Assembly (NCBI GenBank): GCA_965655095.1
Contig: OZ296649.1
Span: 29,636,001 to 29,700,000 of the forward strand
DNA length: 64,000 bases
Origin: Haplodiscus bocki
Taxonomy: Eukaryota
Direction: 5' to 3'
Under the pieces are notes generated by a model that had not been told where the DNA came from, searched no databases, and was given only the letters and a program-made list of their open reading frames with translations. The position numbers and the translations under genes were made by a program. This document shows positions 1 to 14,386 of this stretch, piece by piece; position 1 is the first letter of the stretch; every line of letters starts with the position of its first letter.

Positions 1-49
1 AGACTGGATGACAAGCAAGTGGCAGAGGACTTTCAAGAAGAAGAGATCT

Positions 50-956
50 CATAGTTAAAATTCGAGAAATTATATATAAGAAAAGACTAGCAGCCTAGGG
101 AAGCATTTCAAACCTGCAAGAAGCCAGTTTCCTGTCTCGAGTGAACATTGAAACTTTCCTATTGAGTAAAAACTCACATACGAAGTAAAGACAATACAGA
201 AGACATTTTCCCCGTTTGAAAGTTGTTGCTTTCTTTTTTATAGAGATTTAGTGTTTTGATTTAAGTTATGTAGACAGACTAGCTAAAAACAGCAGTTGTG
301 TTGAATACCTTCGTGTCAGTGTTATTGTACTCTCACGAAACTCAGATTCAGCCCATGCGAACAAAGAGTGTGGAGGAGACTGCTCGAACATTTGGTCGCA
401 TGATCACCAAAACCAAATTCTGATGACGGAGCCAAGATCAACGGAGCTTTCAAAAATGTTCTGTCAAACCAAAGGCAATGACACTTACAACACAAACTTT
501 CAAACGAAATCGGCACTTGCACAGCTCAATATTCGATCTCTCGAGAACATCATGTATAAAAGTTTGAATAACAAATGGTTTTCTCGCTACATAAACGAAT
601 TACAGTCTTTCGTTATGGCAATCTTTTCTGGAATCAATGGCGTAACCGAATTGGCAACGAACAAGGTCTCGACGAAGCATGTTACAAATTTGGTTCCGCG
701 GACAGCGGGAGAGTTGAGTAAACTGGACAGAAAACCCAATTTGAAGCCAGGAGACAAACTTCCAATAGCGAAGGAATGTATACCGTTCCAAAAAGTGTAC
801 AAACAATGCTTCAATGCTTCACCGACGAAGTATTCCAGATTTACAAAAATGCAACCTTCAACGCACCCACTTCTTTGCTGGTTGACTCTGAAGAAGGAGA
901 CATTCATGGGATCTTTATCGGACCAAAGTCGACAAAAACTCGGTAGAAATGGATGA
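50..956 (+). pseudogene. Polinton/Maverick retroviral-like (rve, DDE) integrase, disrupted
   Basis: Manual translation across frameshifts gives IEI*CFDLSYVDRLAK..EYLRVSVIVLS (cf. EIWSxDLAxVDKLAK..KYLLVAVDVLS) and TFGRMITKTK. ORF 423-956 gives FCQTKGNDTYNTNFQTKSALAQLNIRSLENIMYK..KPNLKPGDKLPIAKECIPFQKVYKQCF (cf. KSAFAERxIRSLK..KFKxGDxVRIxK..FxKGYxxxF). Multiple stops and frameshifts; boundaries approximate. Confidence 0.85.
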
Positions 957-1797
957 GTTTGAGTTATACTTAAAGTCAACCGGTTCAATGGATCCTTATC
1001 GACAAAACAGTATATCATGCTTTCGCCTCGTGCTCGCAGAAGATATACAAACAAAGGGGATTGGAGATTGGCCTTGGCAGAATTAATTTTCCCAACAAGT
1101 ATCAAAAATGTTACCCCCAAAGAATACACAAGAAAATGTCCTTTCTGTTTTTTATCATTAATTGGCGATACAACCTCAGCAGGCGTAGTTGGGGAACATG
1201 AGGATTGGTCAAACCATGCCATTTTTCTTGTTGGCGAATACAATACTGTCAAGGATGGTGTCTTGCGTATACGTCTTGCGGTTGCTGAAACCACGAGACG
1301 CTTTGTTACCACTAGCACTGAAGAAGAGTGTGTAGAGTTCAAGTTTGCAGATGGTTATAGAATAAGTGGCGTGCCAGAAGTCTGTTCGACGAATTAGGTT
1401 TCAAGGGAATGCGAGATCCCAAACGAGGTGGGTTTTTTATTGGTAACAATGACAAAGTGAAGAAGCAAACATAACCTGTCAAAGGTCATTATCTGGCAGA
1501 TATTACAGCATGAGCCAACATTTTCCTTCGCTAACTATAATATCAACGAACACCAGCATATAGCTGGAATTAAAGCACCCGTTCTCTGTGTGATTGATAC
1601 AGAAAGACGCCTAACAAACGGTAACCTACAAATCCCCTCTGCAAGGAAACTTTAATCTTTTCTAGATTTGCAGTTTTAGAAGCTAGTTTTTGACACAATC
1701 AGTTGATTTGTTTCTGAATTTTGCTGTGTCAAGAGAGTACGTGCTAATTGTTGGAACCGGTTGCGTTGCTGAAACATTGAAGTTTTGCAAACTTTAA
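949..1797 (+). pseudogene. Polinton minor capsid (penton-like) protein, disrupted
   Basis: Starts MDEFELYLKSTGSMDPYRQNSISCFR, then GDWRLALAELIFPTSIKNV (cf. GEWEVGLAEIxYP). The C-terminal part reads HQHIAGIKAPVLCVIDTERRLTNGNLQI..GTGCVAETLKFCKL*, matching Polinton penton N- and C-terminal motifs. Confidence 0.75.
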
Positions 1798-1798
1798 A

Positions 1799-2150
1799 AT
1801 GCAGTCTCGTTAATCCCAGCAAGCAGTGATGCCTCACTTTTCGGTCGACACAAGACAGAGAAGAAGTGGTTTGGGATCCGTGGCCGCCGGAGTTGGACGG
1901 GTTGCGTTACTTTTGGCAAAACAAAGTACTTCTACCCGCTGTCAAATCAATAAAGAATAGTTGTTTAATCACAGTTTACAAGAAATGATGGATGTTGCAG
2001 CGAAAGAAAAACTCCCAAACAAATCCCGAACTCAGCTGTGCAAAAAAAGTGAAAAAGTAAATCGGAGGGAGTGCAGCAGTCAAAAAGAGTAAACAAGTGA
2101 AGAGAAACAATCGACAAAAGATGAAGCTACAGAGAAGTTCGTCAAATTTC
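1799..2150 (+). pseudogene. Small basic Polinton core/pVII-like protein with a GxG-type motif, disrupted
   Basis: MQSR*SQQAVMPHFSVDTRQRRSGLGSVAAGVGRVALLLAK resembles the QRGSGLG motif of the small virion proteins found between capsid genes in Polintons. A K/R-rich tail follows. End approximate. Confidence 0.5.
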
Positions 2151-2179
2151 TTTTCACGAATAAAACTTGTTACCTTACG

Positions 2180-3460
2180 TTTAATCTGTTGAAACATCAC
2201 ACTGTTCATTGGATATATTTGAGCGTACCCCTCTTCTGATTACTTTCAACACATATTTCGATTGGAAAATTGGTCCAGTATAGTATATGCTCCAAAACGA
2301 CCAACACTAGATTTCAAACTGATTGGAGATCCAAACAATTTCATCGATCTGCAGAACATCTATCTCGAACTGAATTGTAGGATTCTCCGACCTAATGATG
2401 ACAAACTGGAACACAATGCAGGTAAAGCTGCGGCCACTGATTCAACGTTTTTTGTTGAAACTACTCTACATTCTTTTTTTCTCTGAGTGTAGTATCACTG
2501 CGAAAGGCATCAAAATTTCCTCTGCTAATGACAATTACTCCCAAAAAGAATTCATTGAAACAGAATTTTCACACAGTCGGGAAGCCAAAGATGTTTAATT
2601 GAAATGTCAAGGATATTCCTATGAAGAGCAAACTGATTACTTTACTAAAAGCGTTTTCACTACAGGGACAGCTAAAACGTGGGAGTCCGCAGAGGTTTCT
2701 GTCGTTGGAAAATTTGTGTTGAACTTTTCCTCATGTGACAAACACCTGATAAGTGGAGTTACAATGAGGATTTCGTTCCTCAGAAACTGACCTGAATATG
2801 CGCTAGTTTGCGATGATGAAACAGAAGATGATGAAATCGGGACAATGCGAGTCATTTTATACGTTCGAAAAATGACAGTAAGTGACAACGTTTACACAGC
2901 CATTGAGATTACATTAACCAAAATCCCTGCTCTTTGCCTTTATACTGAGATCATACTCAAACATTTTATCATTCCCACAGGGGTGCAGAGCTGGAGTCAG
3001 GAACAGGTATGAATCAGGGAGCCAATTCGAATTTTGAAAATAGCTATGGCAAAAACGAGGCCCTTCTGGGAGCCGAGCGCGTATATCTTTCCATTCCTAA
3101 AAATTCAACTGGAAAAGCATTACAGATTATCGTAATGGTTATCTTGTTGCCGGAACTCCACTCCAAACACAGAACGATAGGAAACTCTACATTATTGCGC
3201 CTGAAGCTCTGGCTTTCGGAGAACATGGTAATGGATTTCCTTACAATGGGTATACAAATCACTATATTTTAACGTTCGACCAAAGCAGTAAACAACAAGC
3301 ATCTCTGAACATCTTTACCCAGAAGTGACAAAATGGATCTATGTCTATTAGCTTAAGGTTTGCAGCACAACTAACAAACACTGTAGAATTCTTTTTCCTA
3401 GGTGAACTGTCTTCTACTAAATACATTGATTCTTCTCGGAAGGTTTCCAGTAATAATTTC
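2180..3460 (+). pseudogene. Polinton major capsid protein (double jelly-roll, hexon-like), disrupted
   Basis: Consecutive fragments: SLDIFERTP, PTLDFKLIGDPNNFIDLQNIYLELNCRI, LHSFFSECSIT..ISSANDNYSQKEFIETEFSH, CDKHLISGVTMRISFLRN, LYVRKMTVSD, ISLRFAAQLTNTVEFFFLGELSSTKYIDSSRKV. About 420 codons in total, as expected for this MCP. Confidence 0.85.
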
Positions 3461-3489
3461 TTGAACACTAAGCTAGAAACCAGGCGTTC

Positions 3490-3915
3490 ATGGAGAGTAC
3501 CAAAGTTTTGCAACAATATACGAAGTGTATGTACCCCGGACATCGACTTCTGGGGGTACTTTCTGCCGATGCATCTCCTATCCCACTCAGCGGGAACACT
3601 CTCAATATTGTGAACTCCGAAAATTCTGATGAGGACGGGTGGCATTGGCTCTTAATATCTAGCAAACACGGAGTCTTTCTATCCGGTGAGCCATTGGGCT
3701 TAAACCTGGATGCCTAGAGGGCAGTTAACGGGCGCCTAACTTATGCAAAATTTAGTTGCGGAGATCTAATTCCAAAAAACCTTCTCAACCAACTACATCG
3801 ACGTTATGTGAACTTTGTTGTCTATACATTGCTTAAAATGCTTGCAGTGGCTACTACCCTGGAAAACCGCTAACCAATAAAGAACGCTTATTACGATTTG
3901 TAAAACCTTTATAAA
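3490..3915 (+). pseudogene. Polinton adenain-like cysteine (maturation) protease, disrupted
   Basis: LLGVLSADASP..IVNSENSDEDGWHWLLI (catalytic His), SGEPLG (degenerate FxDxxG), and QPTTSTLCELCCLYIA at ~3786-3833 (Q..S..CG.YC catalytic Cys motif). Confidence 0.8.
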
Positions 3916-6812
3916 CTTTTTTAAACTTCACTCACCTCAAATTCAACAAGTTTTCAAGATCTTTTATTTTCAATACAGGTCGAATAAAAAAAAAGCTAGC
4001 ATTCCTTTGTTTATGGTACCAAAGTTTAAAACATAACTATCAACCGTCCTTTGAAACAAACTTGCATGTGACCAGCAAGTATCAGGCTGACATTACTAAG
4101 AGAAACTGGAGACACGTCGCTGGTTTTTGCTGATCTGTCATTTCTGTTTCTCACACTGGGGACTCGTTTGCGTATTGGTTTCGTGTTTTGGAAAAATGGG
4201 CTGTTGTGTTCCAGATTCCTGTTTTATTTGACTGTTCGATTAAGTTTCCCAAACATTTCGCCATTCAACTTTAAGTAACGAGTAGTGTGTATCAGAGCCC
4301 AGAACGTTGAGTAAAAACATGGCACAGCGTATCCCTTTCGTCGCTTTTCGAAATTTGGATCTTGATACTAAGAGAAAATGGTAATCGTTTTGCTCAAGGT
4401 CAAACCATTCCCTTTCCTCAGAGTGTCAACCAAAAGCATAACAGATGTCATTTTTGAATTTCCCCTCATGGGGTTCTTGAAAACAAATAAAATAGCAAAA
4501 TTGTTTCTAAAGTTCTTGAAAAAATCGGGCGTCTTTCATACAAAAGCCTCAACCAAGTTTAGAAGCTGATAACAAAATTGAATCGGAATTAGTATCAATC
4601 ACTAAACAAATATATGGTTTCAAAAAGTTCTTGGCATGAAAGAATGAGTTTACGAAAGAAGATGTATGTTCACAGGCATATACATTTAAATGATTAATTA
4701 TGTAGAGTTACTGCCAGAAAAAATTAATCTTAGAATCTGAAATAATTTTCTACTTTGCATTGCGTCGTCTTCTCTTGGCCTTGGTTGCATTCCATTGTTC
4801 TCTTTTTTGTTAATCAACCGACTAAACTCAGATGCAGTGAGTGGAAGTCGCTGATCCGGATAATACTCATCATCGACACCTTGTTTTGAAAAGTTTCAGA
4901 AACAATTAGGTCCCATTGTTAGGATACGTTTTTGATTCTAACTCGTATTTGAAGCCCCTCAGTTTTTGGAACATCAATGTAGCTATCCCGGAAATTGATG
5001 TCAGTACTGGCATAGAACCTACAATTCAAGATTCTTGCACAGTCAGGCAGATTGGAGCAGGAACGTGTTTTCTACGGAACGTATGAAGTTAAATGATACA
5101 AACTGTTAAATTAAAACCACACACAGAATGCTTGATGTATAGGGCTTAAATTTTAATGTTAGAAGGGAGTTGTTTGATTTGTTGACAAGCAGTGGCAGTG
5201 ATATTAATTGCCAAACAAAAAGGAGAAGGAAAATTAGTTCAAAATACTGTGAATTCAGGATCGTACAGGGACTTCCTTCACTACTTGTAAACAAATTTCA
5301 TCTTTCGCCTAGACAAAAACCTTGATTGTGGAGAAATGAGATGATTAGGGCCACTATTCGTAATACGATTGGTAAAATTGATTAAAACCAGTCAGAGCTG
5401 GTGGTCTCGACAAGTACTTGTAAACAAACCGTCTAATGTCTAAATATTACATGTAGAGTGAAAAAACTATCTCAATTTTGTCACCATTCGAACTTTCTTT
5501 TCTCAAAAACTAATTAATTTTCAGAAAAAACGTTGAAATGACAATTGAATACCTCTTTAAATTTTTTTTAATAGTGATTTTTCACTTTCGATACTTCACG
5601 AAGCCTGACTTCAATTATTCAAGATTGTAAACACTTAAAATTCATAGAATGAAAACAAGAATTCAAACATTCACCAGCTATTTTAGTTCCTATCGAAATT
5701 TTTTTCACAATAAATCATTCAATAAATTGGAGGAGATTGTCAGAGAAGAGAAATCAGATGACGATTGGAGCGGTAAAATTTCCATATCCAAACCTAAAGA
5801 CATATTTGATCTGTTGAAGAGCCAGAGCGTCCGACCTAACATTGTCAACTGTTTTGGGACTGTAGGCCTGTCAGAGGAAAAGTGTCCTGTAGGTACGAGT
5901 GTTGACGGATTCCGTTTACCTGTTAGTGTTCCCGAAGTCTTATTCCGCTTCGTTTGTGAGGACATACCCTAATCCGAGAAGCAGTTGTGTAAAATGTTGG
6001 ACTTACAAACCTTAGAGTTGTAATGCGAGACGAAGAGCAAATCGCAATCTCCACGCCTGAAATAAGTAAGACCGCCATTTCTTTTTTCAACCCCTCCTTG
6101 TCAAGGTAGTAAAGAGGACAGTACAGAAATTATTCAGCTTCAAACTCCTGTGAAGTTAGGGTCTTGCTACTCGCCTGAAAGCCCACGGCTCCAAAAAAGA
6201 AGAAATGGGAAATGGGAAAACCGTCACATATTTTCATCAGAAGAAAAGATAGTAATTGTTGAAAATGTTTAAACTACATATTAGTTGACAACAACATTTA
6301 TGATTGACTTCTAGATTTTCCGATATCCAACAAAAATTTCTTTTCTAAATAATTTTAAAAACCACAGCATGGCTGATTACCATTTTGAGGAATTTTAGTT
6401 GAAATAAATTGATCTAACTCTTCCCATCTAAAACAAAACAAAACCAGTCATGCATTATTTGCAGTGAGCGGATGGCAGTTAAACAAGGACATACAAACTT
6501 CAAAGAAATTGCTCGTGTGATGCTAGTCAGGTTTGAGTTGCAGAGTAGTAAAATTGATATTAAAAGAACAAAAGCCATCAGCCAAAGTTCTTTTTGAGGA
6601 AACACTAGAACGAGAGGAATTTGTTTTCAGACTGAGACAAAGGACGCTATCTAAAACAGCCAGAACTCCTTCAATGGTAACGTAATTGATGAGAGAACCT
6701 ACTTTTAGCCTGCAGCGTTAGTCAACAAAACAGAAATCATAAACAAAAAGGTAAAAATTTTTTACTATCTCAGATTTTCCGAATCAGTTCAATAAACTCA
6801 CCAGCGAAAAGG

Positions 6813-9800
6813 ATGATAAACTGTGATCTTTGTAGGAAAACAAATTCAATTAAAAAAAATGTACACCGGCATCTTCGCAACATTCATTACATTGAAACTT
6901 CGAAGTCAGAGCGAAGAAACTGCATGGAATGTCCTTCCAAAATTTATTCCTTGGCAGTAATGAAAAAACACGTTGAAGAAAACCACTTTACAGCACAACA
7001 GAAACTTTGCATATACTGCAAAAGTCTCTTGTCTGACACAAAAACTTTCAATAAACATTCACAAGAAGTTCATTTGTTGCCTCCAGTTACGCAAATGCAA
7101 AATTGGGTAGGCCAATTACCTCAAGCGTCTGTGTTCAGTTAAACAGTACAGACGTGCTTCCGAGAAGCGAATGGTGATCTTGATTTCCTACAATTTATGG
7201 TAGGCAGAAAGCAAATAAGTGATGAGATTATAGAAGAAGCTGTTTGAGCAGAACCGAAAAATTGCAGCTATCGGCAAAAGTCAAATTTCAAAAACGTTGT
7301 TTGGAAGATGAAGACAAAACCGATAACAAGATTCATGTGAACTCCATAATGGAAACAGTCTACGTGGAGGAGAGACTCATTGAGGACATTGAGGAACATT
7401 TTTTCACGATGTTGGATCAAATGTTACTGAATCTGTTCAGTTCACGGAAATGGGTGGATGCTCAAAGACTTCAATTTTCTCTGCGTTAAACTAGATTACT
7501 ATGTCCAAGTTCGAGGTTCATCCGACCATGCATTGCCAAGCGACCTTCAAAGTATAAGTTATTTGTGGAACATATGGAATCGGAAAGATAACGTTTGCTT
7601 CCTTTACTGTTACGTGGCCACTTGGTGTTTGGTTACGCTCAGAGTCTGTTTTTACTGTCAGTTGGGGAATGAGAACGAACTAAGGAACAAATAGTCCTTG
7701 TAGTCCAATGACACATCAACCAACTGGCAATTCTTAAATGCCGACGGCTTTGAATCAAACTCCAAAGTTTGAAAACTTGAACAAAGTCCCAGTGAAAGTA
7801 TCCCGTTACCAGAAGAAAGATCTTACGCCAATGTGAGTATCCAAATGACAGGAATTACCATTCATCTTAGACCTTCTTCTTCTTAACTATAATCAATCTT
7901 ACCATAATTTTTTCATCAAAGACTTGAAAATTTTTTTGAGCAGTCTAAAATAACAAGTTCTACGATGCAATAGCGAAAAATGGCGTGACTATTTTCTTGT
8001 TTGCTACACAGCTGAAATATGTGACAGACATAATGAGACTTGAAGGCAAAACCAAGCAACCACCAATAAGTTACCAGACGAAACGAAAACCGACCTACAA
8101 TTTCGAGACTATCAGAATAGGTGGTTCGCAACATGTGTCATGTATTCTGGGTTTGAGTGGCTCGTCCTATCCGTATTAACATGTTCCAAACTGCTAATAG
8201 TAGTTCAAGTGAGATCCTAGGTAGGCATGCACTTTGTGGAACTTGCTCGGTTGTTATTGGGCACAACAATTCATAACACTTTTCATTCAAATTGGAAAGT
8301 TTGTCTATTTGAATGCAAAGTTTCGTCACAGAAATTTGAAAAAAAACTGACAAATTACATTTACGAAAAGAAACAGTTACATCGAAACTACACAAGATAA
8401 GTACATTTTCCATCCAATTAGTGCTGGAGTTGTTAACAACATTCAGGTTAAAGTGATAGAGTTTTAGATCATTGTATTGGCAGCGGAAGGTTCTTGCTTT
8501 TTTCTCACAGTGAATGCAAACTAAAACAACGCACAATAGCTACATTCCGATATTCGCTCATAATCTTTGGATTTAGGATTTACATTTCAATTGCAAAAAT
8601 CTAAACTCCTTCCTTGAAGATAGTAAAATTCAAATTATTCCAACAACCGCCGAAAAATACATATCGCTTTCGATTGGTAATAAAGTTGCATCTTAATCGT
8701 CGAGGGGTTGAATGACATTTCTACGAATATTTACGTTCACTCGACTCTTATAGGTATTTGGTTTCATCTCTGGACAAACTTGTGAGTTTTTTACCTGCAG
8801 AAAACTTCAAATTATTGGACAATCATTTTCCTCAACAATGTTCCGACGGTTTGCAACTATTCCATCAGAAAAGATTTAACCCCTACTCTTGTTCCGATTT
8901 CCATGAAAACTTCAAGGAAATATCTTTGCCCAATGTAGAAAAATTGACAGACTCTCTCTAATACAATCGAGTGTCAATTATTCTACAGCATTTTTAACAT
9001 TAAACGGAGGTTTTTCAAATGTTTGGTTGTCAAAATCTTGGTAGTTACCACGACCTATACGTAACAACGGACACTTCGCTATTTGCTTGTGTGGCTGAGC
9101 AGTTTCGAAAAGTTACACACTCGACTTATGGATTGGATAATGTTCAGAATTACACCTGTTCTCATCTTTCTGTCGATGCTTCACTAAAAACCTAAAAAAA
9201 AGACAAGCAAGAATTGAATTGTTCGAAGACCGTGGTCATTTGGAGATGGCTGAGAACTTGATCGGAAGTGGTGTCTCTTGAGTGTTTTCGAAGCGTTCAG
9301 CTACGATGAACAACAATTACTTGGAAGGATTTGACGAGACGAAAGCGAGATTAAATGGTCCCTCATGGATGCAAACAACATTTATGGTGGAAATATGCAA
9401 ACATTTCCACATCCTTTGAGCGATTTTGATTTTGTGGATGTTGGAAAGAGCTCGATTTTTTAAACTCCAAACAACTCTGCAATTGGTTTTGTATTAGAAG
9501 TCGATATGGACATATGGACTATTATGATGCACTTCAAAACATGCACAAAGGCTCTCCAGTGGCTCCAACGCAGGAGAAAAATGTTTGCAAATTGTTTTGC
9601 GAGTATCAAGTGGGTCTATTGGATCCAGTATTCAACAGACATGTTGCCACGCCACAGCTTGTACAGACGGTATTTGCAAGAACAAATACAACGTGCATCA
9701 CATTTCCATAAAGCTCTACGTGGATCTTGGTCTCAAAGTTACTAAACTACATCAGGTCCATCAGTTCAGTCAATTCAGTCAGCAAACGTGGTTCAATCCC

Positions 9801-10830
9801 ATATCACCCGGAACACCAGAATGCAAACTCATCCAAAGAACAAGTCCGAAGCGTCATTTTATAACCTATGAACAATTCTTGTTATGGTAAAACTCTTGAA
9901 AGCAAACGAAATAGAGTCAACCTAAAGTTAGTTAAGACAAGGAATTTCATCCTTAAAAACTCTGATAAAATTTTGCTTAAATCAGTCAACATGCTCGACG
10001 CAAACCTGGTTGCACATCAAGTTGCAGAGGACAATTATACTGGAAAACGCCAGTTGTCGTGGACGCTTGCATAATCGATCTTGCCAAGTTGCATATGTAT
10101 TAATTCCATTACAAGGTAAACATAAAACACCAACATCAGTACTTTTAACCCAGAGACTAAAACAAAAAATCCGGCGAAATTTCTACAAATATGGTATGAT
10201 TTTATGATCTTTGGGTGTCACGGCGAATTGATCTAGAGGTAATGACAAAACGTTCGGAAGCCGGCGGTAAGATTTTTGAAACAGTCTAAGTCCACTGAAA
10301 AACTTTTTTGTTTCTAGTTGATGAAGATGACATTCGACTGCTCACCATTGTGTTCCGATATTGATTCTCGGTTTTATGAGATCGATGGACAAGTTTCTAT
10401 GAGACTGAAGCCAACCACACCATGCTACGTGGTCATTTCAACTTCTCTGCCTATACGAAAGACAGTCCTCTTCATTAAGACACAAACAAGATGATCACAC
10501 ACAAATTCAGAGATGAGATGGCGGAAATGTCACTCGAGAAGTCGTTGGTTTCAAACCCAAGATATATTCAATAGTTTAAGAGAACCAACAGAAGATGTCA
10601 ACCAAAAGCATTTCTCGATTCGCTCAAATATTACAGAAGCATGATGTCTCCAAAAGTGATGTAGTGAGTGGTCACCACATGAGGTCAAACAACATAGGAA
10701 TTGGCTCTTCAAAACAACTGCTCCAAACGATTTGAAACAACAGTAATTTCGAGTGCCTCCAATGACAAGCTTTTAAAACAAAATGATGGCATACATTCTC
10801 GTTTTTACGGCCACTACGAAGAAAGAGACT
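6813..10830 (+). pseudogene. Protein-primed family B DNA polymerase (pPolB) of Polinton with N-terminal C2H2 zinc fingers and an EndoVII-like insert; disrupted; putative intron 10116-10317
   Basis: Three C2H2 motifs (6813-7142); RGSSDHALP..NRKDNVCFLYC (7458-7694); CWSC..VLDHCIGSGRF..HSECKLK (~8420-8525); SSLDKLVSFL; YHDLYVTTDT. Polymerase motif A MDANNIYGG (9365), motif B MNNSCYGKT (9868), motif C CSDIDS (10351, cf. YSDTDS), and C-terminal NDGIHSRFYGHY. Confidence 0.9.
10116..10317 (+). other. Putative 202-bp GT-AG spliceosomal intron in pPolB
   Basis: The junctions read AAG|GTAAAC...ttttttgtttctAG|TTG. Removal gives in-frame LAKLHMY*FHYK-LMKMTFDCSPLCSDIDS, restoring normal spacing to motif C. 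Confidence 0.7.
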
Positions 10831-11444
10831 GGCAAGTGCATGGAGAGATCCTGGCCGACGATGACCAAGGAGATGAGGAGCGGAAGGGAACCCCACAAGT
10901 AGTCCAACCTCGTCTACTAAAATCAGGGAATTCACAATTTCACCTGCTAGCAACATCCCATTGTTTTCAAACTTTGATGGTGACCATGAACGAGGCAACT
11001 ATGAAGTTCAAACACAAATCTCAGATAAGATATTCAACTCTCTTGACCCTGGAGTGCATCAACGATGTCACTGGGGAGTGAACTGGAAGAAGCCGTTCAC
11101 TTTGAGGAAAAAACAACTGCATATGCAAGTCCTAGACAAAGAAAAACTTTCATTGACGACAAAGCTGGAAAAGATTCCTTTTGAGACTTCAATTCAGAGT
11201 ATGTCTATGGATGTGACTATCAACTATATAAATAACACCTCTCCGTGGAAGTTTCTTTCCATTTTCGATGTCCCCCAACCCAAGAGAAGACGAGTTGTAA
11301 ACATTTCAAGTGACACTGGGTAAACATTGTTCCTACAAACGGATTTGCGCAGAGCGTTATGATAATGTTTTCCATCGTAAACGTTGAGAAAAAAACTTGA
11401 AGTGCTTCTTTTCACGTAGATAACACCCACCCCTGAAAATGAGC

Positions 11445-12340
11445 ACAAAAAACTTCTGTCAAAGTGCGATCGGAAAAAACCTCTGTGAAAGAGTGCACGG
11501 AAAAATCCCATGTGAAAAAAAGGCGGGCTGAAGAAGGTTCTGCAAAGAAGTGCACGGAAAAAGCCCATCCGAAGGAGCGAACGGAAGAAAGCCGCTGTGA
11601 AAGAACGCACGGAAAAAACGGACGTAAAAGAGCGCACGGAAAAACCCCAGCCGAAATGGCACATGGAAGAAGTGCCGGCAAAGGAGCACACGGAAGCAGC
11701 ACCTGCGATGGAGAACACGGAAAGGGATCCTGCGATGGAGAACACGGAAGGAGCGCCGGCAAAAGAGAGCACGGAAAAAGCCCCCGCAGACGAACACACG
11801 GAGAAAAGGCCCTGCAAAAAAGCGCATGGAAAAATATGCTGTGACGGAGCGCACAGAAAAACCCCTGTGATAGAGCGCGCGGAAAAAACCCCTGCAGAAG
11901 AGTGACAGAAAACGCCCCTCTGAGAAAGCGGAAGACAAAACGACAAAACCCACACGGTATGGCGCACGGAAGAAACCACAGCAGAAGAGCGCAAGAAAAA
12001 AACCCTTTCAAGCGAGCAAACAGGAAAAGCCCCAACGAAAGAGCGCACGGAAAAAGTTCTGCGAAGGAGCGCACGGAAATAGCCCCTGCGAGAGAGCATA
12101 ATGAGAAATTCCTGTTAAATAGCATACAGAAAAGTCCTTTGAAAGAGCGCACCGAAAAACCTTCTGTGAAATGTTGCACGGAAAAATCCCCTTTGAAGCG
12201 GCGCAAGGGAAAACCCACTGCGAAAAAGAGCTCTGAAAAGCCCTTGCGAAAAAGCTTACTGTAGCGCCCCTGCGAGATAATGTTGAGAAAAGGTACTGCA
12301 AAACTGTACGAAAAAAATCGTGCGGAGAGTGCTGAGGAAA
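11445..12340. repeat. Degenerate 27-bp minisatellite (~33 copies), consensus approximately AAAAACCCCTGCGAAAGAGCGCACGG(A)
   Basis: CACGGAAAAA-like motif recurs every ~27 bp. It translates to 9-aa repeats (KERTEKTDV/KEHTEAAPA/MENTEGAPA). Confidence 0.9.
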
Positions 12341-12968
12341 CATTCATGGAATGGAAAGTGGAAAAAATAATTTCAATAAATTTCCAGCCTCGCACAACAC
12401 CCATCGAGGCAGAGCCGGTATAAGATTCCCGAAGATGACAAAGCTAGATGTTGGTGGTTCTGGAAACACCATGAAGGTGCCTTTTACATCAGTTATCTGT
12501 TTCGTTTTGATTTAAAATTGATGAGTCGAATTGAACACAGATTACAGACGATTTTTAGCATGCTTAGACGATCAAATATAGGGTTGAAAACCATCCTGGA
12601 GCGATATAGATCGTTGGGTATGACCTTGTTATCAAAAAAAACACCGACTAAAGGATATCAAACTTTTCAAAAACTCAAATGCATAACTAATCAAGAAATG
12701 ATTTGTAGGATTTGAATGATACTCGGCTTGTTGTTAAGCAGGCAATGTAGATGGTCATCGGCGAAAAGATCAATCAAAACTGCTAAATAACTTGATTTTT
12801 AGGTTGAAAGTTTCTAGGAGAGTTGTTGAAAAGAAAAGGATTAGTTTAGCATATCAATTGAGCTTGACAGTTTTATATGATGTACGGATCCGGAGTGTCC
12901 ATCAAAGCAGTCACTAAATTGAGCGGCATCAAATTTTTGAAGCAAATTGCATAAACTAACTCCAAGTG

Positions 12969-13358
12969 TTATCTGTCACAATCTCCCATGGTTCTTAGAA
13001 CACAATCTTCGATTCCTGTCAATCGTAGGTTTTTTGCAATGGGATGGGCTGCCATTCCTACTCCCTCCACTGCAGGTTTGATAATGACCTTCACATGTTC
13101 ACACTTCGCCGTAACCCTGGAGGCGAACGTTCTGAAATTGCCGTAGACCCAGCTTCCGCGTATCACTCTGAGTTTTCGAAAAAGCGGAGGTTGTTGTTAC
13201 GCTGATTGTTAGCTTTTTATTCTCCTTGGTTTTTTGACCCATCCCGAACCAACTGTTCTTGTCACCTATCGCCACGACAGATTTGTACCGGGCTCTGTTA
13301 GTCCCGTCAGGTGGCATATTCTGTAAAAGCATCGTTTTAATAATTTCCTCCTGATAAC
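12969..13358 (-). pseudogene. RPS2: Highly divergent 40S ribosomal protein S2 (uS5)-like exon, frameshifted
   Basis: EEIIKTMLLQ..RARYKSVVAIGDKNSWFGMG and VIRGSWVYG..RVTAKCEHVKVIIKPAVEGVGMAAHPIAKNLRLTGIEDC align with RPS2 RTRFKAFVAIGD..GHVGLG and [36 protein letters not shown]. There is a one-base frameshift in the A5 run at ~13179-13183 and a tttcag acceptor just upstream of 13358. Confidence 0.75.
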
Positions 13359-14386
13359 CTGAAACATAACTCTTTCATTCACATTGAATTGTTCGAAAGA
13401 GGGTAGTTCGTTTTATGGTTAGTAGTTGCAATCAGCTTTTCTCGCTTTGTACAAAACTCTTTACATGTTGGTTGGGAAATTCGAGAGTTTGCGGAGGCTT
13501 TTCAAGTATCTATTCTCTAACCGCGTAATTAACAGTTGTGCTTATTATTAGTAATGAAGAAAAAAAGAAAAGACAATGTTGACTTGCTTGTCGTCCCGAT
13601 TTCGATAGCAGTTTGACTGTTGGTGGCAGTATCGCTTTCGTTAGCTGAATGACTTCCGGTAGCCGTATTAATTTTGGGTAGCTGTGTGACTGTGTAGCTG
13701 TATAACTTTTGTGTATCTTTGACTTTTGTTTCGTTGTACGACTATTGTGTAGATAATATGTTTTTACAGCTGAGGAATGCTGGCGGTTTTGAAAGTTAGG
13801 TCAGGTTAGGAATGCTCGCATTGGTGTTTACATAATGACTTTAAAGAAGCACCGTCCAAATTTGAAGAGTAAAGTTAGTAGATGCGCGGATGGACGCTTC
13901 TTCACCTAGGTCGCTAAGTTAACAAACTTGGAATACCAGTAGTCTAGCCTAGGCTACATGTAACTTTTGTTTGCAAGCTGAGATTCACCCGCGAAATACC
14001 TGTTTTGGTTTACAGATTCACCCGCGAAAAGGTTGACTTAATTTTGGGATGGGGGTGCGAAAAACCATGTGAATCCCTATACTACTGCTGACGTCGGTTG
14101 ATATCGACCGTTCACTAAGCAATTTTTGTTAACCTGAAGTAGAGTGTTAACCGGTGTTTGAGGGTGAGGTAAACCTAGGTCTGATTGAGAAATTTCGAAC
14201 TCCCCATGCTGCGGGTCCCGACATGAACTCTAAAAATAGTTTACTACTAGAAAGATTGTAATAGTTAGGGGTAGGGTTTTAGGCAACTTTCATCCAGCCA
14301 CTTTTCCAGTGCCAGCGGATCGGTTATTCCATTCAGTTTGTAACAATATAATTGACTCTGAGTTCCTTTTCAGGTCAGAGCATGCC

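Follow-up and report, generated by a model that had tools for sequence, protein, structure and literature searches.

The 64,000 nucleotides of Haplodiscus bocki DNA analysed here (the window) contain the greater part of a Polinton/Maverick element of about 18 kb, whose left end lies about 4.1 kb upstream of the window start and whose right end falls at position 14086. Members of this family carry terminal inverted repeats (TIRs) of about 72 bp, AGTAGT...ACTACT, and are flanked by 6-bp target duplications, of which four of the six positions still agree around the window copy. This copy is a dead fossil: it is 79-80% identical to a young copy, and both exons of its polymerase gene, pPolB, carry many stops and frameshifts. 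The features of the element are given below in window positions.

1..14086, +: decayed Polinton/Maverick copy, about 18 kb, collinear with sister copies
66..943, +: retroviral-like integrase gene, broken (tblastn; Pfam rve PF00665, E 3e-9 in a young copy, above cut-off)
2167..3487, +: probable double-jelly-roll (DJR) major capsid protein gene, broken (tblastn; Atlas score 0.98)
3406..3911, +: adenain-like cysteine protease gene, broken (tblastn; Atlas score 0.98, PF00770 in 62% of members)
6813..10115, +: pPolB exon 1, with zinc fingers, endonuclease-VII-like domain and polymerase to motif B plus the TPR2-side linker (Pfam DNA_pol_B_2 and Endonuclease_7 in sister copies; window pieces)
10113..10121, +: putative 5' splice site AAG/GTAAAC (GTRAG in 23/30 copies)
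10116..10317, +: probable phase-0 GT-AG intron, 202 nt in the window and 181-208 nt in 30 copies (sequence, sister copies)
10286..10290, +: candidate branch site about 30 nt upstream of the acceptor (CTNA in 25/29 copies)
10303..10317, +: polypyrimidine tract and YAG acceptor (pyrimidines make up 0.73 on average of the 13 nt preceding YAG)
10318..11320, +: pPolB exon 2 (337 codons in a young copy), with motif C (YxDTDS in young copies, decayed in the window) and the C-terminus
11447..12255, no strand: 27-bp tandem array within the element, its length differing among copies
12903..13350, -: ribosomal-protein-S5-like cargo gene, decayed in the window (PF03719 E 1.4e-10 and PF00333 E 3e-8 in a young copy; window match)
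14015..14086, no strand: right TIR, about 72 bp (comparison with sister copies)

The polymerase is identified by Pfam family PF03175 (DNA_pol_B_2; E 3e-15, above the curated cut-off). Its start codon at 6813 is taken from reading of the sequence, and the domain order of exon 1, apart from the Pfam matches, is presumably as listed. A young copy also encodes an A32-like ATPase (Pox_A32, E 2.6e-4, slightly short of the Pfam cut-off) with a P-loop present in the sequence. For the capsid candidate, a 439-aa ORF, the second Atlas match is a cluster with PF21738 (DJR-like) in 30% of its members, recognition being slightly below threshold, and a fold predicted from the single sequence reaches a pLDDT of 31. 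In the excerpted accounts of vertebrate (PMC8097293) and nematode (bioRxiv 10.1101/2022.07.12.499685) Polintons/Mavericks, the elements are likewise 15-20 kb long with TIRs and a 6-bp target duplication, and they share pPolB, the rve integrase, the A32-like ATPase, the adenain-like protease and a probable capsid gene.

Several other traits of the element and its surroundings can be recorded here. The 27-bp array, which lies between the polymerase and the S5-like gene, ranges from less than 1 kb to more than 8 kb by copy and is often open in several frames. The S5-like gene recurs at 32% identity in a second intron-bearing family, and is thus old cargo. Near the left TIR, a 102-aa ORF with an EGF-like cysteine motif (locus L133:658-963, +) is common to two other families. 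At L133:3690-5301, a 237-aa ORF shares part of its sequence with the integrase in another frame, an arrangement common to five young copies, whereas the sixth joins the two in one ORF of 537 aa. Many same-strand ORFs overlap in a young copy, and a pyrimidine tract with CAG stands shortly upstream of likely start codons at L133:8304-8975 (-) and at other ORF starts. Such CAG-preceded starts and overlapping ORFs suggest that the remaining genes of the element may use further splicing or trans-splicing. None of the 16 first ATGs of a young copy is part of a poxvirus-type TAAATG start. Outside the Polinton, from about 24600 to 64000, the window holds a tandem array with a unit of about 2.0-2.1 kb, whose copies are 88-99% alike.

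Position and signals of the insert

Within pPolB, an insert of 202 nt begins with GTAAAC directly 3' of TACAAG and ends with TTTTTTGTTTCTAG directly 5' of TTGATGAAG. It separates exon 1, with the motifs up to B, from exon 2, with catalytic motif C, and it cannot be read through. Motif C (YxDTDS) bears a catalytic aspartate of B-family polymerases. The first-pass annotation had taken this insert for a spliceosomal intron, and the ends that it gave are exact, with exon-1 homology stopping at 10115 and exon-2 homology resuming at 10318. Both of its candidate branch sites, CTAAG at 10286 and CTGAA at 10295, are present, and CTNA is found at 10286-10289 in 25 of 29 copies; the polypyrimidine tract that it described is borne out by the mean pyrimidine share of 0.73 before YAG. 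Excision in phase 0, as it had proposed, restores the frame of intronless homologues and places motif C 11 residues after the junction, as in 50 of the best 120 protein homologues of exon 1. U2 introns are defined by GTRAG, a branch A, a pyrimidine tract and YAG. A GT donor in a GTRAG context, a pyrimidine tract and a YAG acceptor are all present in this family, and are weaker in the second family. The acceptor context of the window copy itself, CTAG/TTG, is atypical, exon 2 beginning with GT in 25 of 30 copies.

An internal inverted repeat had also been reported. It is present as 10 A/T-rich nucleotides (10160-10169 with 10304-10313), but it is specific to the window copy. An exact match to its 5' arm is present in only two copies out of 29, and shuffled sequences fold at least as well as the window insert (z +0.91), so that we rejected the repeat as a family feature. 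A hairpin in the interior of the insert was discarded as well: its apparent conservation was 0.92 versus about 0.8, yet a deletion in one of the young lineages disrupts it.

The insert in sister copies of the element

When the 1.5-Gb genome was searched with the window insert (40 of 44 candidates scored), all 40 matches listed proved to adjoin exon 1 of sister elements, as judged by flank alignment for 30, by a separate analysis for one and by coordinates next to exon-1 matches for nine. A second search used a young intron as query (40 of 66 candidates scored), and the additional places listed likewise adjoin exon 1. The dispersed copies that the first-pass annotation had considered are thus absent from the matches listed, all of which lie within the element; neither search listed a stand-alone introner copy, although very diverged solo copies could escape. 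Nor is the insert unique to the window copy with a target duplication and a MITE match of its own, since it is common to the sister elements.

Thirty copies, including two near-duplicates, could be aligned across the insert. Of the 30, 26 have a GT donor (GTRAG in 23) and 26 an AG acceptor (YAG in 24). The exon bases on either side of the insert are AG in 25 copies and GT in 25, and in-frame stops occur within the insert in all 30. Such agreement is not due to chance. An insert shared by other copies, with GT and AG ends kept in most and an interior that changes at the rate of third codon positions, is what the reading as an intron had led one to expect. One variant, at L150 (G000:C5:17370548-17374907), has a 306-nt intron at the same site, and its interior is still related to the main family.

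Six young copies were examined. They are 96-98% alike over about 17 kb among the pairs listed, and both exons are uninterrupted in three of the six. All six carry the insert, which is 184 nt long and frame-breaking in three, and 198 nt long and stop-containing in the other three. Perfect 6-bp target duplications, all of them different, flank each of the five young copies with both ends in view. Given these differing duplications, the element must have integrated at new sites with the insert already in place. An exact-match search for exon ends lying 0-20 nt apart, as in an intron-less copy, found none; decayed copies would escape it.

Selection on exon 2 points in the same direction. We counted sites at which a young copy is unlike at least 70% of nine copies of the older subfamily. 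By codon position, these number 14/3/24 over the final 300 codons of exon 1 and 4/4/23 over the initial 200 codons of exon 2 (p 4e-6), whereas the same count within the insert gives 5/6/8. The insert changes at the third-position rate (odds ratio 1.02) and 4.1 times as fast as positions 1 and 2 (p 2e-5); these p values are rough, the older subfamily having been grouped by eye and the sites being non-independent. Between two young lineages, exon 2 shows 19 silent and 14 replacement codon differences, and the insert shows a 14-nt length change. By these counts, exon 2, with its third-position bias, is under purifying selection, and it was thus in translation at a time when the gene already had the insert.

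It seems appropriate to ask at this point whether an introner or MITE might have entered the gene after integration, and so have no bearing on the active element. The two junctions both carry AG and GTAA, in a manner that resembles a short target duplication, and the insert ends of a young copy can pair over seven bases (z -2.0). However, the end pairing and the repeat are largely given by the splice consensus (GTAAR, TTTACAG) itself, and the older subfamily ends in TTCCCAG without end pairing. Furthermore, the site is identical in independent integrations with different target duplications, the 40 of 40 matches listed in each of the two genome searches fall within the element, the inverted repeat arm is kept in just 2 of 29 copies, and the exact-match search found no copy in which 20 nt or less separate the exon ends. 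With every match inside the element and the inverted repeat unconserved, the recent, introner-like insertion that the first-pass annotation had offered as an alternative finds no support, and we consider a post-integration insertion extremely unlikely. An ancient transposon origin of a single intron gain would fit the AG and GTAA repeat and the end pairing, most of which the splice consensus supplies.

The same codon in related polymerases

Comparison with other polymerases extends the history of the insert beyond one family. Among the best 120 protein homologues of exon 1, 108 continue into motif C and five end before the site or are frameshifted near it. The remaining seven (70-97% identity) end 10-49 residues past the break between FHY(K/S) and V, in unrelated tails, and cluster members provide two further interrupted variants. 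V-S follows the break in 9 of 10 interrupted rows, as GTNAGY would encode. Three of the tails overrun into exon 2 in a shifted frame, which implies introns of about 115, 91 and 67 nt as reckoned from protein only; the splice sites of the six external lineages are likewise read from protein tails alone rather than from intron DNA. The missing parts are found as separate exon-2 ORFs of 336-360 aa, which are 65-76% identical to the family over their first 160 or so residues. For five exon-2 ORFs, the longest contig is of the same size as that of an exon-1 protein.

In a tree of 74 polymerase rows, computed with FastTree only and with none left out, a single branch of support 100 sets all 10 interrupted rows apart from 63 intronless rows. 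The sister group of the interrupted clade is intronless and includes a family from the same genome. Within this genome, 40 loci of other families were compared: 25 have an insert (at least 65% identity), 13 lack it (51-61%), with a gap of 0 at the junction, and two could not be scored. A second, older family (L184-L203), nearest to the interrupted clade by summed score, has an insert of 123-136 nt at the same codon. Its interior is unrelated to that of the first (scores 14-17 versus shuffled means of 15-16), and its splice ends are poorly kept (GT in 8/20, AG in 12/20) in copies that are about 69% alike. Decay in this family is greater on the donor side than on the acceptor side, with GT in 8 of 20 copies versus exon-2 GT in 15 of 20.

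Other collections contributed little. Neither exon 1 nor exon 2 has relatives in viral_contigs, a metagenome scan returned one irrelevant match at 28%, and a search of PDB sequences with exon 2 gave chance matches only. In contigs from four sequencing runs of a single study, whose kind is not recorded, no joint that skips the intron was found, a result that speaks neither for nor against splicing. In the P0004 cluster, an identical 1,140-aa exon-1 protein occurs on four contigs of 15.26-15.35 kb, which is the size of an element; these contigs are either collapsed repeats or free genomes. At G000:C12:50392335-50393828, a pPolB match is split by about 535 bases within an open frame of 722 aa that includes its two parts; the intervening bases possibly encode an in-frame inserted domain.

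The stand-alone exon-2 ORFs raise the question of whether the gene has been split, such that two polymerase subunits are made, the second from the exon-2 ATG, and the insert is an intergenic spacer. Split B-family polymerases occur in archaea and some phages, and in every interrupted lineage found the ORFs of 336-360 aa begin at an M about 10 residues upstream of motif C. Independent translation of exon 2 from this ATG, its second codon, is formally possible, but the same V-M is present in intronless relatives. Moreover, the first part of such a split gene would have no conserved end, as 5-50 unrelated tail residues follow the break and some overrun exon 2 out of frame. GTRAG and the pyrimidine-YAG stand exactly at the boundaries, and AATAAA is lacking within the insert of a young copy. 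We judge a split gene to be very unlikely.

We give next to no credence to a self-splicing intron, an intein or a recoding element that acts by frameshift or bypass. Group I introns are known in some Polinton-like viruses (PMC12220804, in its excerpted text), but four loci gave no Rfam match at E<=0.5, and none of these mechanisms accords with lengths of about 68-306 nt that differ in phase, with unrelated interiors or with the in-frame stops that all 30 copies contain. A 12-nt deletion in one young lineage also removes an arm of the best hairpin.

Probable host splicing of a Polinton replicase

Given these observations, we believe, with a probability of roughly 0.88, that the insert is a functional, inherited U2 GT-AG intron in a Polinton replicase, that it is common to a clade, and that its removal is likely to need the major spliceosome of the host. 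That the replicase carried a host-spliced intron while the element was active, as the first-pass annotation had proposed, is well supported at the level of sequence by the young copies, the clade-wide position and the selection on exon 2. The common codon across one clade, together with the presence of the insert in young copies, makes it likely that the intron was gained once and then retained through active spread. The gain would have taken place in the ancestor of the clade at an AG/GT proto-splice site. The interior would then have drifted neutrally, to lengths of about 68 to 306 nt, while position and ends were conserved. The gene would be transcribed in the nucleus by host RNA polymerase II, and the major spliceosome would remove the intron, constitutively, before a working polymerase is made. 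Because the intron interrupts the gene just upstream of the catalytic motif, members of the clade probably need host splicing to copy themselves.

A more elaborate possibility is that retention of the intron is regulated. The third intron of the P element provides a model, in which tissue gating restricts activity to the germ line. Here, the retained form would lack motif C, and removal in the germ line would license replication. The intron has been lost in none of the 10 interrupted rows, its site cuts off exactly catalytic motif C, and some young copies combine a weaker GTAAAC donor with end-to-end pairing. However, the interior evolves at a neutral rate, the read-through tails are unconserved, no interior motif is conserved across lineages, and plain failure of intron loss explains the same data. 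A switch of this kind seems to us unlikely. If it did exist, retention would yield a polymerase of about 1,145 residues with N-terminal, endonuclease-like and exonuclease parts but no motif C, and a tissue gate on a virus-like replicase would have been kept across the whole Polinton clade.

An inherited intron that is removed constitutively, as we favour, can be set beside several known systems. The DNA polymerase gene a185R of chlorovirus PBCV-1 has a spliceosomal intron that is about 89% spliced by RNA-seq ratio, according to the excerpted text of PMC3946568, which cites Grabherr et al. 1992. As in the present case, where splicing is deduced from sequence, a spliceosome-type intron interrupts the family-B DNA polymerase gene of a virus or virus-like element. 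PBCV-1 is a giant algal virus, whereas the element described here is 18 kb long, integrates and has a polymerase primed by protein, and a common origin is not implied. Chlorovirus PolB is primed by RNA or DNA. Spliceosomal-type introns also lie inside the Maverick-Polinton-like elements of dinoflagellates, where they belong to multi-copy host introner families and about 90% of tests fit insertion after integration (PMC11957031, as excerpted). In contrast, the intron described here occupies one site that is inherited via the element lineage, with no copies elsewhere among the matches listed. Polinton-like viruses, those of cryptophytes among them, have group I introns that, as presented in the available part of PMC12220804, are self-splicing, 309-376 nt long, and interrupt a short gene upstream of the capsid gene; they too are introns in a Polinton-like virus gene, unlike the present one in that no Rfam match is found here.

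In the excerpted texts, intact vertebrate Mavericks have no introns (PMC8097293), and the core genes of nematode Mavericks are intronless, with introns confined to host-derived cargo genes (bioRxiv 10.1101/2022.07.12.499685), whereas in the present family a core polymerase gene is interrupted. Among the titles and abstract openings that we surveyed, no spliceosomal intron in a Polinton polymerase was found, although the original papers of 2006-2007 or Repbase may note such a case. An intron in a viral polymerase has precedent, but we found none for this class of element in the texts consulted.

This matters for how such elements are counted. By the excerpted descriptions, one survey requires intronless core ORFs of any element that it counts as intact (PMC8097293), and another uses plain ORF calling with viral genes assumed to lack introns (bioRxiv 10.1101/2022.05.02.489867). 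Under either approach, intron-bearing Polintons would be scored as dead, and the protein database does hold the interrupted polymerases as two separate ORFs. As an example of intron gain at an AG/GT site, the family is also clean and dated: the same genome contains intronless sister lineages that bracket the event. The data further provide sequence evidence on the site and manner of gene expression in Polintons: an obligatory intron in the replicase would mean nuclear transcription and host splicing for the clade.
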